NCBI GenBank assembly: GCA_048939465.1
Contig: JBHLPL010000085.1
Coordinates: 1 to 8,306, forward strand
Length of the DNA: 8,306 bases
Reading direction: 5' to 3'
From: Promethearchaeota archaeon
GTDB taxonomy: Archaea > Asgardarchaeota > Odinarchaeia > Odinarchaeales > JBHLKK01
Part shown: piece after piece, positions 1,425 through 8,306 of the stretch
Layout: every line of letters starts with the position of its first letter
Numbering within the stretch: the first letter of the stretch is position 1
Position numbers and translations under genes: made by a program
The notes under the pieces: model-generated
The model's database searches: none
The model's input: the letters and a program-made list of their open reading frames with translations, nothing else
What the model was told of the DNA's origin: nothing

Positions 1425-3032
1425 ATGCTAATGTTCAAGCGCAGAGATAAAGGAGAACAATCGCGGTTTCGGATAAGTCGAGAGCTGGCAAAGGAATTTG
1501 AGACAATATACGATTTCAAGGAAAAGGTAAGCAGAGTTCAATCAAGAGAAGCCGAGAAAATCTCAAACCACTTCAACACATCCATCCAAATAGCTAAGGC
1601 AATCTGCCAACTAGAGCGAGATGGAGTAAAAGGGGAAACGGCACATGAGTTGTTTCAGTGGGCGCAAATGATTAGAGAGGAAATGCGTGTGCCTGTTCCT
1701 CAAGTATCATCCTATCTTTTCAATTTTGCGGTGGGCGAAGGAGTATGGATAGAATACCTTTACATCAAGTTTCACTCTGTACTTGAAAAAGCACTGATGA
1801 GCCTTGCTAATCTCGAAAGAGCTTTCGAGAAGGAGGATACTATCCCAGCTGAGAAAATCGTAGGTATAATAGATGCACGTAGAGATGTTGTTGAAACCCT
1901 GATCGGTCCACTAATGGATAAATGGAAGAAGGAGCATGAAAATGCTCCAAGTATTTACGCAGCTCAGGCCATAGTCTCGGCAGCTCTGAAGACCCCTCCT
2001 GGGCGTGCCATCCATATTATGGAAAAAGCCAAGCTTGAGCTTCAGAAAGCACTATTTCATCTAGATAGTTCTTTGGAAAAAGAGAGCCTCCCGGAAGATG
2101 GAGTTCCGGTCAAAATCAGGGTCTTGAAACTTCGGATGCATCTATTAAGTCCTCTCTCAAAACTTGAAGATATGGCGTTGGCGGAAGTTGTTTTGAACGC
2201 GTGCCCGAGACCTGAGGCAATCTATGTCGAAGGAGAACATCCAAGTGTTTTAGTTCATTCGCCAGTGCTTCGAGGGGGGCTTGTGGGGCCTGAACTCAAA
2301 ACATCTTCGGACTTTCTTGAGCGTGACGTTTTCTTGGCAAGACGTCGCGATGAATCAGAACGTGACGCGTTTTTGTTGAATCGTGTCAAAAGAGCTCACA
2401 GAACGCTGGTTCTTCAAGGAAACAATCCAGTCTCTGCTGCTGCCAAGTTGATATCTGATATGTCACATCGTTTTAAGGCATCCCCCGTCGATGAAATAGA
2501 AGCAAAAAGAATGATTATCGAGAAAGCTGCCGGCGCGGAGAAGTTTGGTGAATTCATTAGGAAGATGAGGATTGCAAAATCGATCGATGAACCAAGAAAA
2601 TCGGTCATTTCAGAGACTACTTCTAGGATACCCAACGAGTCGTTATTGGAAGAAACTGAGCACACGGCGATGGTGCGTGGAGTGATTAGTGAAGAACCGG
2701 GAATCGAAGTCGAGGAAGAACTCGCTGAGGACCTCAATGAAGAAGCCGCGGAAGAACCCGCAGAAGGAGTCACAAACCTTGACGGCAAAACTGGAGAAGG
2801 AATGGAGGCGGCAACAAGCCGCGAAGAAACTGTGACTGAAGGACTACTGGAAGAATCTCCCAGAAACCTTGATGATAATGCTGTCAGGGAAGTTATGAGA
2901 GAGATTTCCGAAAAGGACATCGAAAAGCTGGGTCTGCCGGAAGAAGAAATAGTGAAGTCGCTTGCATCGTTGATAAAAGAGACCTTTGTGGAGAATAATG
3001 CAGACGAACTGGAGAACAAAACGGATGAATAA
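1425..3032 (+). CDS. Hypothetical protein: about 390-aa mostly helical region plus about 140-aa acidic low-complexity tail
   Basis: Long uninterrupted ORF with no recognisable catalytic motif. The last 140 aa contain 43 D/E by hand count. A GGGGT motif (1420-1424) suggests the in-frame ATG at 1431 as an alternative start. Confidence 0.85.
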   Translation: MLMFKRRDKGEQSRFRISRELAKEFETIYDFKEKVSRVQSREAEKISNHFNTSIQIAKAICQLERDGVKGETAHELFQWAQMIREEMRVPVPQVSSYLFNFAVGEGVWIEYLYIKFHSVLEKALMSLANLERAFEKEDTIPAEKIVGIIDARRDVVETLIGPLMDKWKKEHENAPSIYAAQAIVSAALKTPPGRAIHIMEKAKLELQKALFHLDSSLEKESLPEDGVPVKIRVLKLRMHLLSPLSKLEDMALAEVVLNACPRPEAIYVEGEHPSVLVHSPVLRGGLVGPELKTSSDFLERDVFLARRRDESERDAFLLNRVKRAHRTLVLQGNNPVSAAAKLISDMSHRFKASPVDEIEAKRMIIEKAAGAEKFGEFIRKMRIAKSIDEPRKSVISETTSRIPNESLLEETEHTAMVRGVISEEPGIEVEEELAEDLNEEAAEEPAEGVTNLDGKTGEGMEAATSREETVTEGLLEESPRNLDDNAVREVMREISEKDIEKLGLPEEEIVKSLASLIKETFVENNADELENKTDE

Positions 3033-3043
3033 AAGGTGATTTC

Positions 3044-3814
3044 ATGCCCGCTCTATATTGGCTTCTAGATGTCTACATGCCTGATTTTCAATTAGGCTAC
3101 GGAAACGTAGAGCTAAAGGGAAAGGTGTTAATAACCTCAAACCAACTCTGGTCTCTAATGGGAGAGAATACTGTAAGATCGTCTCTGATAGGACCTGGCT
3201 ATATCTTCGGTCAAGGAACGCTAAAAGGAAGCCCGGTCACGTTCGAGTCACCGATTGGAGCGCTTATAATGGACCCGACGGAGTTGAGACCTCATGCTCC
3301 TGTTCCCTTAATAGATATCATAACTCCTGAGGTAATTGACCCGTTGGAGACTAGTTCTCCGGAAACAATTAAGGAGAATATCATGAAGATCGTAATTAGA
3401 AAGGGACAGGTTCTCGGACCTGTAAAAGTTGCTGAAGTACACGAAATGACCAATATCCCAATGACGGCGTTTGAAGAAGATGTGACTAGAGAGTTGCACA
3501 TATCACACGTTTCAGGAATTGAAAGAGCGAAGTTCATTCTAGCTGGAAAGAACCGACGTTTGTTCGATCCCTTTGTGAGACTGATAAAGCGAGGTAAGTA
3601 TCAAAACCCCCACAACTTAAGAATCCTCCGAGTGGACAAAAAACGAATCGATGAATTTATGGACGCGGACAGGCTTGGAGAATGGGTAATCATCGAAAAA
3701 GCTCAAGAGCTGACTCCGGAGATAAGGAGCAATACTTTAGAAGAATTCAGGAAGGAATATGAGTTAGCATATAATGATATAAGGAAGAATTGGGCAGCAT
3801 ATATATATTACTAA
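3044..3814 (+). CDS. Hypothetical protein (256 aa), probably co-transcribed with its neighbours
   Basis: Strong SD-like AGGTGAT at 3034-3040 just before ATG 3044, and an 11-nt gap from the upstream stop. No confident family match. Confidence 0.85.
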   Translation: MPALYWLLDVYMPDFQLGYGNVELKGKVLITSNQLWSLMGENTVRSSLIGPGYIFGQGTLKGSPVTFESPIGALIMDPTELRPHAPVPLIDIITPEVIDPLETSSPETIKENIMKIVIRKGQVLGPVKVAEVHEMTNIPMTAFEEDVTRELHISHVSGIERAKFILAGKNRRLFDPFVRLIKRGKYQNPHNLRILRVDKKRIDEFMDADRLGEWVIIEKAQELTPEIRSNTLEEFRKEYELAYNDIRKNWAAYIYY

Positions 3815-3840
3815 ATCCATCTGACATCGGGTTGTCATTT

Positions 3841-4545
3841 ATGATCGGAAAAGTTGAGATTCATCCGGTGGCTCTGGCAAAGATTCTAGAGCATACTGCC
3901 TTCACGAATTTAGAGAGAGCCGGTCTTCTAATTGGCCGATTGAGGAATGAATCTCTTTTGATTACTGATGCGGCGATCACGAGGCAGAAAGGGACGGCAA
4001 CTCACGTGAAACTCAAGGATATAGACCAAGCATCACTAGCTGAATTCCTGCGGAAACAATCCACGGGCGAAATAGTATGTGGCTGGTATCACTCCCACCC
4101 GAAAATGGGTGCTGATTTCTTCTCTTCAATTGACAAAGATACACAGCGAAGATATCAAGAACTATTTCCGAATGCTGTAGGACTAGTCGTCGATCCTGCC
4201 AAATTTGCTGTGACTCGCAAATTCAAAGATGCAGACGTTCACGTTTATCGCGTAGAAAAGGGCAAGCTTAAAGAGCCCCCCTTCAAGCTGATATCCCGTC
4301 CCGAAGAGGTCGTGGAGAACACTGTAACAGTTATCCATAGGGAAAAGGCCGAGCTCACAGACATACTGGACAAGATTACAGAAAGACTTCGTGAATTATA
4401 TAGCAAGACGGGCTTTTTGCCGAAGGATTATGTCACCAAGAAAGATCTCAGAAAATTGAGTAGCGACTTGGTCGTAACAATGCTGGGGTGGACTTTTATT
4501 GTAATTATTCTCCTAATCATGGTAACCATACTTATGACTTTTTGA
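3841..4545 (+). CDS. JAMM/MPN+ (Rpn11/CSN5-like) zinc metalloprotease/isopeptidase with a C-terminal transmembrane anchor
   Basis: Catalytic Glu in NLERAGLLIG (E25); GWYHSHPKMGADFFSSID (H84, H86, S95, D98); Rpn11-like flanks QKGTATHV and AVGLVVDP; C-terminal 25-aa uncharged hydrophobic segment LVVTMLGWTFIVIILLIMVTILMTF. ATG 3841 is preferred over the overlapping TTG 3790 because the MPN beta-1/helix (KVEIHPVALAKILEH) starts immediately after it. Confidence 0.9.
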   Translation: MIGKVEIHPVALAKILEHTAFTNLERAGLLIGRLRNESLLITDAAITRQKGTATHVKLKDIDQASLAEFLRKQSTGEIVCGWYHSHPKMGADFFSSIDKDTQRRYQELFPNAVGLVVDPAKFAVTRKFKDADVHVYRVEKGKLKEPPFKLISRPEEVVENTVTVIHREKAELTDILDKITERLRELYSKTGFLPKDYVTKKDLRKLSSDLVVTMLGWTFIVIILLIMVTILMTF

Positions 4546-4585
4546 TTCTTCGTAGGTAATGATTCCTTTGGTTCTGTAGCTTTGC

Positions 4586-4621
4586 TATAAAAAAGCTTAA
4601 AACCTACTATTATATATTTAA
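4586..4621 (+). promoter_or_regulatory. AT-rich promoter region with BRE/TATA-like elements upstream of the longin-like gene
   Basis: AAAAAAGCTTAAAA (4589-4602) and TTATATATTTAA (4610-4621) in a 139-nt AT-rich gap; SD-like AGGAG at 4674-4678 before ATG 4685. Confidence 0.5.
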
Positions 4622-4684
4622 TTTGGGATACAATAATTAAGGAGTTCCCTTCTAAATATATTCAGAGATCAGTAGGAGATATCT

Positions 4685-5773
4685 ATGCCTAAGGGTATAG
4701 TCGTTATTAGGTGGGATGATAAAGTAGGGGCTGTACTAGAAGCCAAACATCCATCAGGATTCGAAATTGATCAGGAGCATATAATGAGAATTTTCACGAC
4801 TCATGCCCTAGGTGCTGCAAATCCAGGTTTTATGAGTATGAGAATAGAAGACCTGAATGTTGCAAGCTACTATACAGGGATTATGTCTGCAGGTCAGAAT
4901 CAATACTGTATTTCGCTAATCCTTAAAGAGGGAGAGGATGCTGATTCTTTTGAAGAGTCGCTTTCTGAAGCGGCAAAAGGGATTCTAGAGCAATCAGGCC
5001 CGCAAGGGATGACGGACTTCATTTCTACGGTCTATGAAAGGTTTGCCAGAATAGCTGAAATAGAAGATGAACAACGATACGCAATGATATTTAGCGATCC
5101 TCTGCGTGTGCTAGTCCTGCAGAAATTCATTGAGGGTAGCATAACAAAATCTGAGCTGAAGGCATGGCTTGAAGAAAGAACTGGCAGAGAAATAGCAGAC
5201 CTAGATATTCTTCTTTCTCCATTTATGAAGACGGAACTGGTAAAATCAGCTTTTGTGGAAGGCATTCCTGACGAATGTCTTTTCCTCGTCAAGGATGTTT
5301 TCGCGACTCGTGCTCCTATGGCCGAGCTGCGCCGGTCAATCCAGGGAACGATCATTCCTGGGGAAATAGGAGAGCAACACTTGGAAGAAGTGGAAAAGTA
5401 TTTCAAGGAATATAGGTCTACTCCGGATGACACATCCCGCTTCTCAAAAGCCCTATCCAACCCTGACATTTACTTGATCATCAAAATGCTTCGAGAAGGA
5501 GTATATCACCTCGAAGAACTCGAAGCCAAACTGAACATCAACAACGAAGAGTCTTTTCACGATCTAATCGATCAACTCAAGGAACTTGACGTTATCAATG
5601 ACGTAAAGGATAGTGAAGGAAAGGACTGGCTAGTCCTCAAATCGGATTTGAAATACGCTACGTTCTTCCCTGAGTATTTGATAGATGTCATTAGAAAAAG
5701 ATGGAATGAGGGCACCCTGGAACAGAGACAGGCGGTAAAGCATCTGGAGCTACTTAAAGAGTCTTATTCGTAA
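4685..5773 (+). CDS. Longin (uDENN/NPR2-like) domain protein with two C-terminal winged-helix-like repeats
   Basis: The N-terminal pattern fits longin topology: beta-beta (GIVVIRWDDKVGAVLEAKHP), helix, beta-beta-beta (FMSMRI, NVASYYTG, YCISLIL), helix, helix. Two later similar units (SDPLRVLVLQKF...ELVK and SNPDIYLIIKML...LDVI) look like wHTH domains. SD-like AGGAG upstream and tandem TAA TAA stops. Confidence 0.7.
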   Translation: MPKGIVVIRWDDKVGAVLEAKHPSGFEIDQEHIMRIFTTHALGAANPGFMSMRIEDLNVASYYTGIMSAGQNQYCISLILKEGEDADSFEESLSEAAKGILEQSGPQGMTDFISTVYERFARIAEIEDEQRYAMIFSDPLRVLVLQKFIEGSITKSELKAWLEERTGREIADLDILLSPFMKTELVKSAFVEGIPDECLFLVKDVFATRAPMAELRRSIQGTIIPGEIGEQHLEEVEKYFKEYRSTPDDTSRFSKALSNPDIYLIIKMLREGVYHLEELEAKLNINNEESFHDLIDQLKELDVINDVKDSEGKDWLVLKSDLKYATFFPEYLIDVIRKRWNEGTLEQRQAVKHLELLKESYS

Positions 5774-5797
5774 TAACCCAGCTTGAGGCTGATTCAA

Positions 5798-6214
5798 ATG
5801 CAAATCGATGAAGATATGATAAATCAAATCATTTTGGAATACATTACCAAAATAAACTCGAACTGGCATAGCAATGTGTTCACAAGCGCGAGACTGGCCA
5901 GGATAGCTTTAGAAAGATTAGATGACAAAAGAACTAGATTTCCGACAGTCCACTCTGTAGTTAGGAAGACGCTTAAGAATCTGGCAGAAGAAGGATTATG
6001 CACGTATGTGACTACGACCAAGTTGGGACGTTGCAGAAAAACAAAAGACGTGTACAGGTTTAACTCCTCCGGAATTCGATTGGTTAAGCGGAGATTGATT
6101 GAGGAGAGTATAAAGGGCATAAACAGAGGGCAGGAATTCAGCTACGGCATACTCCGAACCAGAGAAAGAACAATAAAAGCCCTTATCGCGAGAATCACAA
6201 GACCTGCTTTTTGA
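5798..6214 (+). CDS. Basic winged-helix protein, putative DNA-binding regulator (PadR/MarR-like fold)
   Basis: 138 aa from ATG 5798 (the track uses TTG 5783). Three helices, then VRKTLKNLAEEGLC, a wing, and KDVYRFNSSGIRLV. Hand count gives 28 K/R versus 14 D/E. Confidence 0.6.
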   Translation: MQIDEDMINQIILEYITKINSNWHSNVFTSARLARIALERLDDKRTRFPTVHSVVRKTLKNLAEEGLCTYVTTTKLGRCRKTKDVYRFNSSGIRLVKRRLIEESIKGINRGQEFSYGILRTRERTIKALIARITRPAF

Positions 6215-6268: not shown

Positions 6269-8306
6269 TTGAGAAGAAGCTTCCAAAAACCAATACTTGT
6301 CGTATTCTTAATGCTGGCTGCAGTCTTTTCATTCCAACTACCGATTCTTCTTCCCGCAAAGGCAAATGGCTCTCCAACTGTGTATCATAACGGAGTAGAG
6401 ACATTTGAATGGGATCCGGCCCTTTATAGCGAATGGGATTACCGAATAAGGGTTAGTGTAACTGAACCAGATTCCGTCAACAGAACGAATGAGCCAGTCA
6501 ACGTGTACCTTGAGTTCCCTTCGGGTTTTGCCAGGGAAAAGAACATCCATGTGAAGTTTTATAACGGCACCTGGTATCCTGTGCCCTATCAGGTTTGGAA
6601 CACAACAGGAACGCCTTATTTAACCTCTTGTACGATTACGTTTCTCTCGAATATCACCAAAGGAAACACCGTTTATTACTATGTTTACTTTACAGGGAGT
6701 TCTTCTCCTACGGCGCCAGTATCTGATACATACGTTACCTATGATAACGATAGTGGCGTTATTACTGCTTTTAATTATCGGGCAACAATGAATCTAGATT
6801 ATGGATTTCTAGATGATTTCATAATAAACGACGAAGACCTGATTGGCTCGGTTTATAATTATTACGGCGGGTCTGTGGAAGCAGGGATTATTACAGACTG
6901 GAGACGTGACGAAATAGACGGAACAGAAGATACAGCAAGTTTGGATAATTCACGGTCAATATTCGGCCCCGACTGCCCCGTTTTTACCAGACTTGTCATA
7001 AACAAAACAACCGATTACCCGTCTGGCTACCCGTCCAAAGACGGATCAGATATCGACAGGGTATGGACATTCTATCCTAACTACTTCACACTTGAAGTTA
7101 GATATGATCGTAAATATGATTACCAAGCTACCTACGTCGTCTACGGCAGAAGCTTCCACAACGGAAGCTCGGGAAACCCCGTCTACTGGGCTACTGCAGT
7201 AGAAAATTACACAAGATACGGTACTGAATATGTTAGGTCTGCCACCATCGACGGTAGCGATTATGGTGACAATATGCAGTATTACGATATTTCTGGCTGG
7301 CAATGGTTCGGGGTATATAAGACTAACCATTATGCTTACTCGTGCGTTGCTACCCAGGACTCCGATATAAATGCGATATACTATTCTGATAGAAGCTCCT
7401 ATTACACAAGGCCCCCCAGGTATGGTGCAATGGGGTGGGCGTATTCCGTGTCATCTGGAGTCCTTCCTCATGACCTTGAAGCCAAACTCTTTTATTTCCC
7501 CCATGGACCCCAACCCAGTTATTCCGACTATGAGTTTGCTATGAGCGACCATGCAAGGGTGAATAACCCCGTTACTAGCACTAATGGATCCATTGAATAT
7601 CGAATCCTCAATCTCTTGGAAGTAGAAGCTCTCGACTATGATGGGAACTATATCTCGAATCTCAAAGTTCAACTATCTAATACGACACTTGAAAGAAATG
7701 AAACGACTGACGAAGGCATCGCAGAATTTGACGATCTCGAAAGCGGAGTCTACGACATGAGTTTCTGGTACAACATAGATGGCACTGAATATCAGGTATC
7801 CGCAAATTTCACAAGTCTGAACTTCAATCCGGGATATACAAGAAAGAGCATAAGCATCGCAAATTGCAGTCTCCGAACTCTTCATATGTATCTCCAAGAT
7901 GAAGACTATGGGTTGCCACTATACGATTACACCCTGAGGCTAAACTCCACAACGAATAGCATAGATATAAACGCCACAACCGACGAGAATGGAAATCATA
8001 ATTTCACTCTCTTGACTTATCAAAGCGATTTCTATAATATCAGTGTTTATGATCCCGATGATATTGAGCAGACTGCCAATGAGACAGGAGTTAATCTAAA
8101 CAGCTCGTCACTTGGGGTACCGCCAACCTTGGTACTGACCCTTATTCCCCCGCTAAATATAACAACATTGACCCATGCATATTCAAACAGCTCCATAGAT
8201 TACATCAGCACTATACAAACGGGGAGACTCATTACGCCAACCTACGCTGAGGTCTATTATGGGGACAATGTCACCTTCTCAATATCTTTCATAGATGTTA
8301 CATACG
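6269..8306 (+). CDS. Large secreted or cell-surface glycoprotein (S-layer/adhesin-like), 3'-truncated by the window end
   Basis: Translated by hand: the frame is open from TTG 6269 (GTGAG SD-like at 6259-6263) to the window end, 679 codons with no stop. Signal peptide MRRSFQKPILVVFLMLAAVFSFQLPILLPAKA|N; N-terminal WDYRIRVSVTEPDSVNRTNEPVNV...PVPYQV...YYYVYF domain; Tyr/Thr/Asn-rich beta content; about 23 N-x-S/T sequons. Confidence 0.9.
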   Translation, partial: MRRSFQKPILVVFLMLAAVFSFQLPILLPAKANGSPTVYHNGVETFEWDPALYSEWDYRIRVSVTEPDSVNRTNEPVNVYLEFPSGFAREKNIHVKFYNGTWYPVPYQVWNTTGTPYLTSCTITFLSNITKGNTVYYYVYFTGSSSPTAPVSDTYVTYDNDSGVITAFNYRATMNLDYGFLDDFIINDEDLIGSVYNYYGGSVEAGIITDWRRDEIDGTEDTASLDNSRSIFGPDCPVFTRLVINKTTDYPSGYPSKDGSDIDRVWTFYPNYFTLEVRYDRKYDYQATYVVYGRSFHNGSSGNPVYWATAVENYTRYGTEYVRSATIDGSDYGDNMQYYDISGWQWFGVYKTNHYAYSCVATQDSDINAIYYSDRSSYYTRPPRYGAMGWAYSVSSGVLPHDLEAKLFYFPHGPQPSYSDYEFAMSDHARVNNPVTSTNGSIEYRILNLLEVEALDYDGNYISNLKVQLSNTTLERNETTDEGIAEFDDLESGVYDMSFWYNIDGTEYQVSANFTSLNFNPGYTRKSISIANCSLRTLHMYLQDEDYGLPLYDYTLRLNSTTNSIDINATTDENGNHNFTLLTYQSDFYNISVYDPDDIEQTANETGVNLNSSSLGVPPTLVLTLIPPLNITTLTHAYSNSSIDYISTIQTGRLITPTYAEVYYGDNVTFSISFIDVTY
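7613..8150 (+). repeat. Two degenerate protein-level beta-sandwich repeats (carboxypeptidase-regulatory/prealbumin-like) within the surface protein
   Basis: Unit 1: LEVEALDYDGNYISNLKVQL...NETTDEGIAEF...GVYDMSF. Unit 2: LHMYLQDEDYGLPLYDYTLRL...NATTDENGNHNF...FYNISV. Both share D-x1-2-G and TTDE(N)G motifs. Boundaries are approximate. Confidence 0.55.

Follow-up and report, generated by a model that had tools for sequence, protein, structure and literature searches.

The archaeal deubiquitinase closest to the system described here is the Rpn11-like protease of Caldiarchaeum subterraneum (PDB 6FJV and 6FJU), which matures archaeal pro-ubiquitin and deubiquitylates, and which belongs to a cluster of ubiquitin, E1, E2, RING and Rpn11 genes. 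Among the eukaryotic members of the same catalytic family, Rpn11 and CSN5 require an MPN-minus partner and PCI subunits, while AMSH is recruited through MIT/ESCRT contacts to endosomes, where it acts on membrane cargo. A second relevant system is the eukaryotic oligosaccharyltransferase (OST), one subunit of which is Ost5/TMEM258; its known subunits are, to our knowledge, membrane proteins without exception. Since no closer relatives of eukaryotes are known than the Asgard archaea, their unexplained conserved genes are candidates for early eukaryote-like cell biology; conserved hypothetical gene pairs are common in these genomes. Here we describe one such pair, g1 (positions 1425-3032; 535 aa) and g2 (3044-3814; 256 aa), which is followed by a JAMM/MPN+ protease gene, g3 (3841-4545; 234 aa from its ATG), on the forward (+) strand of an 8,306-nt stretch of Promethearchaeota archaeon DNA (contig JBHLPL010000085.1 of assembly GCA_048939465.1, an Odinarchaeales lineage), hereafter the window. 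An earlier note on this DNA had presented the three genes as one candidate undescribed module, in which the two soluble proteins would serve the membrane-anchored protease as scaffold, adaptor or substrate. Our results show that g1 and g2 are an obligate pair, restricted to Asgard archaea, inherited together and nearly always encoded back to back, and that the JAMM, although it recurs beside this pair, is dispensable rather than an obligate partner. The gene string described in the note is real; what the note overlooked is a more conserved partner, an Ost5-like gene directly upstream of g1.

The pairing is best seen in a comparative sample of 201 genomes of the phylum, evenly drawn, the families of which are designated f1, f2, f6 and so forth below. 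g2 was present in 84 of these genomes, and a full-length g1 was found in the same 84, plus two genomes of the source genus whose contig ends inside or just after g1. In 78 of the 84 genomes the two genes were neighbours in the same orientation, with the g1 stop and the g2 start overlapping or no more than ~20 nt apart (-8 to +21 nt for the majority of called or open reading frame (ORF)-derived cases); the corresponding spacer in the window is 11 nt (3033-3043). Because the g1-g2 order recurs in 78 genomes of other lineages, the closeness of the genes here is not a product of chance. The homologues of g1 came from Asgard metagenome-assembled genomes (MAGs) only, and both these and the 38 homologues of g2 (0 with a Pfam domain) were all annotated as hypothetical. 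In this respect, the two genes are like other conserved hypothetical Asgard gene pairs, being merely hypothetical in MAGs labelled Thor-, Loki-, Hod-, Ran- and Promethearchaeota. We did not find a published description of the pair, although the literature is not searchable by sequence and the pair may carry another name.

The architecture of g1 points to a specific part of the protein that goes with g2. The AlphaFold2 (AF2) model of g1 (residues 1-400; predicted local distance difference test (pLDDT) score 80.3) is all-helical and consists of a first domain, a disordered loop and a second domain. Domain 1, a helical bundle delimited by the model and by invariant columns (residues 9-259; 1449-2201), carries the invariant residues E24, F25, E105, G106, W108 and H171, while domain 2 (residues 294-380; 2304-2564), which we regard as the probable g2-related module, carries the invariant motif D296-F-L-E-R-D301 (2310-2327). 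This DFLERD motif was found in all 29 full-length g1 proteins compared vs. none of 10 distant relatives that keep domain 1 only, with its EGxW motif retained. Nine of these 10 domain-1-only proteins (f3, f14, f24, f25 and f27) came from genomes without a detected g2, and the tenth, from f13, is an extra g1-like copy in a genome that also holds g1 and g2. That domain 2, with its motif, and g2 are jointly absent in the distant relatives suggests that domain 1 is the older module, linked to Ost5 (see below), and that domain 2 is the part of g1 related to g2. The remainder of g1 is of unequal conservation. The core is basic (isoelectric point (pI) 8.8) with a conserved LARRR stretch, and the acidic tail (residues 401-535; 2625-3029), a feature named in the earlier note and confirmed by its composition (pI 4.07; 42 aspartates and glutamates in 135 residues), is specific to the source genus and missing in the homologues of every other family compared.

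It is conceivable that g1 and g2 never bind one another, and are instead consecutive enzymes or independent factors of one pathway, kept together for co-regulation. The invariant g1 residues E24, E105, H171, D296, E299 and D301 might build a catalytic site or bind a metal, and the genomes of f16 and f10 have retained both genes though unlinked. However, the searches described below revealed neither an enzyme family nor a fold for g1 or g2, and stop and start codons that overlap, a strict 1:1 co-occurrence and the finding that domain 2 and g2 are missing together are rather what one expects of subunits; we consider a non-binding pair very unlikely. A complex prediction with g1 (residues 1-400) and g2 gave an ipSAE score of 0.00 in two runs, which weighs neither for nor against binding.

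With the tools used, the g1-g2 core fits no known family or fold and is, in this sense, categorically new, the structure models being of moderate confidence. Neither protein had a match in Pfam, NCBIfam, PADLOC or PHROG profiles, and profile searches of PDB sequences with g1 and g2 returned nothing significant, the only hint for g1 being a non-significant similarity to the cullin WHB domain at positions 309-365 (E 0.23). Fold searches with the g1 model gave no convincing match either, with a best Foldseek E value of 0.2, TM-scores of at most 0.28 in the ESM Atlas, and a best Z score of 6.2 in a VIA-wide search, which is under the noise level for helical proteins; an Atlas feature search with g1 gave no usable match. 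A PCI domain, which would be expected from a subunit of a lid-, CSN- or eIF3-type assembly, was not recognized: no PCI or other consistent Pfam family appeared in 29 g1 members at E values up to 1, and PCI proteins were absent from the best fold matches of g1 (Z of at most 6.2), where a remote similarity is still possible. A CATCHR/COG4-like identity of g1 was also considered and rejected, with the COG4 middle domain (PF08318, COG4_m) matched in one of the 201 genomes and in none of the 29 g1 members. The single match, at near-threshold significance (E 1e-5), is in a 560-aa distant g1-like protein of f14 (genome G019, L039 3541-5223), and probably represents a chance similarity between helical bundles.

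In f16, g1 carries an additional fused module of ~250 aa at its N-terminus (L029 439-2406 and L030 2890-4860). This module consists of an alpha/beta domain and a weak winged-helix match, and the Atlas places it with unnamed Asgard proteins, some of them with a winged helix. We also asked if this extension, or a divergent 393-aa neighbour in f3, could be a domain of the type encoded by g4, the gene that follows g3 in the window; this was supported for neither (BLASTP E >7; hidden Markov model (HMM) E ~0.03-0.1).

The g2 protein is similarly isolated. A g2 profile search of 1.84 billion proteins returned 24 representatives, all of them g2-like except for one repeat artefact, a 1902-aa tandem-repeat ORF (P0073) in which one short word was matched 23 times and which was thus rejected as a chance match. 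The AF2 model of g2 (pLDDT 83.7) has a beta-rich part (residues 1-154) and a helical part (residues 158-253), and the N-terminal domain is all-beta in this model, without helices, unlike an MPN domain. Foldseek against PDB (best E 0.1), the ESM Atlas (TM-score of at most 0.31) and BFVD (nothing) gave no fold for g2. The best VIA-wide matches of residues 1-98 were Sm/LSm proteins (Z 3.5, root-mean-square deviation 3.1 A over 69 residues), which is under the noise level of the tool. These fold searches barely examined the C-terminal half of g2 and domain 2 of g1 as separate queries. An Atlas feature search with g2 pointed to unnamed bacterial and giant-virus clusters at 0.94; the BFVD search gave no confirmation of this, and the lead was dropped. 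A second g2-like gene, apparently split in two, was observed in f16 (G043 C7 189253-189948 and G058 C91 18979-19662).

No neighbour of the g1 family is more persistent than the Ost5-like gene, which in the window occupies positions 1100-1315, immediately 5' of g1 and outside the original three-gene finding. It encodes a 71-aa protein with two predicted transmembrane segments, which matches the Ost5 family of Pfam (PF05251) with an E value of 1e-5 and 26.1 bits, just under the cut-off of 27.4; the same family was matched by 12 of 17 orthologues of the protein (best E 8e-8). Adjacency was counted in a sample of 41 genomes, 22 of which have a full-length g1, and in 17 of these 22 the Ost5-like gene was no more than 2 kb from g1. 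Further, the distant g1-like genes of f3, f14, f24 and f25 also have an Ost5-like gene 0.1-2.8 kb away, in varied orientations, two of these small genes scoring weakly. Homologues of Ost5/TMEM258 have been reported in most Asgard classes (Eme et al. 2023, PMC10307638). As for g1 and g2 themselves, neither matched any OST family of Pfam or NCBIfam (only the separate 71-aa neighbour does), and they are unlike any known accessory protein of OST or of the translocon. In f3, a short g1 that consists of domain 1 alone (267 aa) is followed by genes for an HD phosphohydrolase, a ThiF/E1-like protein and an Rce1-like membrane protease, with the Ost5-like gene at the end of the block (L037 4894-8436 and L038 3965-7821). 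The ThiF/E1-like gene was not counted, since the HD and Rce1-like genes in this block are unrelated.

The linkage of the pair to the JAMM is looser. The JAMM gene is directly 3' of g2 in nine genomes (f1, f2 and f19) and lies 1.4-2.9 kb downstream of g2 on the same strand in 19 further genomes (f12 and f15), where an opposite-strand DUF5814 helicase gene (f12) or an aminotransferase gene (f15) is located between the two. Altogether, a JAMM was found within 3 kb of g1-g2 in 28 of 84 genomes, representing 5 of 10 families. These placements, together with the short spacers in the window (11 nt between g1 and g2, and 26 nt, 3815-3840, between g2 and g3) and no long T-tract between the genes, speak for the idea of a single lineage-specific complex of the three proteins, g1, g2 and the JAMM, comparable to the proteasome lid, CSN or BRISC, as does the observation that a tail-anchored JAMM of 220-245 aa is always within 3 kb of g1-g2 when it shares a sufficiently long contig with the pair. 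However, several lines of evidence render such a complex unlikely. None of the 42 g1-g2 genomes of f6 had a JAMM match, and the four of them that were sampled had none even at an E value of 1e-3; f13 and f16 have only short (143-172 aa), distant, unanchored JAMMs, which are located elsewhere; and JAMM orthologues are common where g1-g2 was not found, e.g., in f4 (20 of 21 genomes), f7, f8 and others. That is, strict co-occurrence holds for g1 and g2 and does not extend to the JAMM, and the proposal that g1 and g2 are its obligate scaffold, adaptor or substrate does not stand in much of the phylum, where the homologues do not co-occur.

The comparison with the lid, CSN and BRISC, tempting as it is, also needs to be corrected on other grounds. 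Rpn11 and CSN5 depend on an MPN-minus partner and on PCI subunits, whereas a PF01398 scan of the 91%-complete source genome revealed no second MPN protein, and no PCI, UEV or other domain or fold of the lid/CSN/BRISC type was detected in g1 or g2. Finally, a TATA-like element, TATATATA, is found in the last codons of g2 (3800-3807), 34 nt upstream of the g3 ATG, and could serve as an internal promoter that gives the JAMM gene a transcript of its own.

The g3 protein itself appears to be a new variety of Rpn11-like archaeal deubiquitinase. It matches the JAB family (PF01398) with an E value of 1.1e-16 and 61.2 bits (cut-off 22.5; 63 bits in the genome scan), and its set of catalytic residues is complete (a glutamate, E25, with codon 3913-3915, followed by H-x-H-x7-S-x2-D, i.e., H84, H86, S95 and D98, at 4090-4134). 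The C-terminus is a ~25-residue hydrophobic segment (residues 210-234; 4468-4542), and both this tail and the catalytic residues are invariant in eight orthologues from other families. A conserved tail anchor of this kind would hold g3 on the membrane, as the earlier note had it. The closest solved relatives are the Rpn11-like structures 6FJV and 6FJU (E 2e-28 over residues 3-161), with CSN5, AMSH and eukaryotic Rpn11 ranking behind them, and the MPN+ core and the E...HxHx7SxxD motif are common to g3 and the Caldiarchaeum protease; the conserved C-terminal tail anchor, in contrast, is a feature of g3. Eukaryotic AMSH/Sst2 and Rpn11/CSN5 belong to the same catalytic family (E 1e-10 to 6e-16), and AMSH, by acting on membrane cargo, offers a functional parallel to a membrane-held g3, although g3 would be anchored by its own transmembrane segment instead of recruited. 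Matches of g3 to CBASS-type JAB models were far weaker (E ~1e-5) than the Rpn11-like match.

The source genome also encodes the ubiquitin on which g3 might act. An operon on contig C138 (L047 4494-7475) consists of genes for a RING-GTPase fusion (243 aa; a RING finger plus an Arf/Roc-type small GTPase), a RING protein (79 aa), ubiquitin, E2 and E1 (ThiF), and the ubiquitin sequence ends in GGDP, two residues past GG, which is a further likeness to the Caldiarchaeum system. There is no JAMM among the genes of this operon. The only JAB gene of the genome, and sole PF01398 match in the 91%-complete assembly, is g3 on contig C7 (the window), which is thus encoded outside the ubiquitin cluster, in contrast to the Caldiarchaeum-type arrangement. 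Given a single Rpn11-type enzyme and a ubiquitin that needs C-terminal trimming, g3 is likely the pro-ubiquitin (GGDP) maturase and deubiquitinase of the source genome.

Taking these results together, we tentatively propose that g1 and g2 are two subunits of one cytosolic complex, an obligate heterodimer, in which domain 2 of g1 with its DFLERD motif would be the part related to g2 and domain 1 would track the gene of the Ost5/TMEM258-like membrane protein. This complex may work on the cytoplasmic side of the membrane, close to the Ost5-containing glycosylation/translocon machinery, as gene order suggests, and the JAMM would be its optional neighbour. Where present, the tail-anchored deubiquitinase would be co-expressed with g1-g2, would most likely mature the GGDP pro-ubiquitin and would strip ubiquitin from membrane-proximal proteins, its presumed substrates; g1-g2 and g3 may share clients where both exist, with neither requiring the other. 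We assign a probability of roughly 0.4 to this model as a whole.

Several observations weigh against it. Neither g1 nor g2 has a hydrophobic segment of transmembrane length or a recognized membrane-binding domain in its sequence, and the proposed membrane location therefore rests only on the neighbouring genes. The Ost5-like genes were found in 34 of the 41 genomes sampled, i.e., far more widely than g1-g2, and therefore Ost5 is not dependent on the pair; in f2, moreover, the Ost5-like gene is ~12.7 kb away from g1. g1 and g2 are unlinked in five genomes of f16 and one of f10, and related genomes are not independent of each other, so that the counts given above overstate the number of evolutionary events. 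The structure models are of moderate confidence, with four of the five g2 models at pLDDT 69-74. Last, the conserved neighbours are functionally mixed (Ost5, the DUF5814 DEAD-box helicase, the JAMM, the winged-helix proteins g4 and g5 and, in the source genus, TFB), and unrelated genes (SAM synthetase-like, aminotransferase and nuclease-like ORFs) are inserted into the block. Guilt-by-association is therefore limited, and the block may represent inherited synteny instead of one pathway.

This last consideration leads to an alternative that is possible, if doubtful, in our judgement: g1-g2 would be a soluble complex unrelated to Ost5 or the JAMM, perhaps a nucleic-acid or ribonucleoprotein factor that works with the DUF5814 helicase, and its other neighbours would be leftovers of an old gene order. 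The helicase gene directly follows g2 in Thor-like and Ran genomes and, as mentioned above, stands between g2 and the JAMM in f12; a basic g1 core with its LARRR stretch, the insertions of unrelated genes and the Sm/LSm proteins among the weak best fold matches of g2 would all be in line with such a role. On the other hand, the helicase does not adjoin g1-g2 in f1, f2, f13 and f19, nor in the window, the Sm/LSm score (Z 3.5) does not rise above what the tool itself describes as noise, and the link to Ost5 also holds for the distant g1-like genes in their differing orientations, which inertia of gene order alone hardly explains. The helicase (~860-900 aa, with DEAD, Helicase_C and DUF5814 domains; L033 10830-13478, L034 4178-6874 and L018 7849-10428) is by itself a conserved neighbour of g2 in the Thor-like, Ran and f12 genomes.

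Returning to the model of a g1-g2 complex near the Ost5 machinery, its value is that a vague three-gene module has been replaced with an obligate and unusually well-defined pair, without known relatives or fold, that is directly testable by co-expression, and which gene order ties to a homologue of an OST subunit and, in a number of lineages, to the sole Rpn11-type deubiquitinase that the genome encodes. If g1-g2 docks on the Ost5 machinery or steers the deubiquitinase, this would connect glycosylation/translocation to ubiquitin signalling on the membrane of an archaeon; without such docking or steering, the pair remains a clean target for structure determination. A much bolder version of this model, to which we give only a slim chance, would have the Ost5-like protein, g1-g2 and g3 form an Asgard membrane station that couples N-glycosylation/translocation to the editing of ubiquitin on membrane and secreted proteins, i.e., a prokaryotic forerunner of endoplasmic reticulum-associated quality control, with g1-g2 as a cytosolic adaptor made of two unseen folds.

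The sequence signals around the genes are consistent with g1, g2 and g3 being a string of co-oriented genes that is probably co-transcribed, and most of what the earlier note had read from them was recovered. The three same-strand genes are spaced as the note had stated; the promoter-like element upstream corresponds to a putative TATA-like box, TTTATATC (1332-1339; one mismatch to TTTAWATA), which is placed in the 109-nt spacer (35% GC) 5' of g1; and a Shine-Dalgarno-like AGGTGAT (3034-3040) is found 3 nt upstream of the g2 ATG. The absence of internal T-tracts applies to the spacers and not to the ORFs, which contain T5 runs at 2370-2374 and 4414-4418. The AT-rich gap downstream, between g3 and g4, is 139 nt long with 29% GC and includes a TATA-like ATTATATA at 4609; together with the T5 run (4539-4543) at the stop codon of g3, this stretch (4539-4684) is likely where the unit ends and where the following gene has its promoter. 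Two gene starts deserve comment: g1 measures 533 aa in its database copy and the start is therefore probably the ATG at 1431, and an alternative TTG start at 3790 would make g3 overlap with g2. Scans for Rfam families and tRNAs gave no matches in the window.

The rest of the window is occupied by genes of other kinds and, like g1, g2 and g3, these and the Ost5-like gene are on the forward strand. A TFB/TFIIB gene (35-994; NCBIfam PRK00423, E 2e-123) is the first, and it is directly 5' of the Ost5-like gene only in the source genus (also in G001). Downstream of g3 are g4 (4685-5773) and g5 (5783-6214), and these two follow g1-g2(-JAMM) in f1, f2 and f13. g4 belongs to a large family of Asgard paralogues of ~360 aa, with six matches in the source genome and up to 10 elsewhere, that is without a Pfam domain and shows a weak Csa3-type winged-helix match over residues 217-346. 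A stand-alone g4 N-terminal domain (148-160 aa) occupies in f13 the position that the JAMM has here, and the sister genomes G001 and G002 have a further g4 paralogue 4-5 kb from the Ost5-g1 genes. Following g5, a gene that runs off the end of the window (6269-8305) encodes a large secreted protein with hints of immunoglobulin-like or prealbumin-like domains (SdrD_B and CarboxypepD_reg), and the f2 genomes have homologues of 1510-1556 aa of this protein in the same place after g5.

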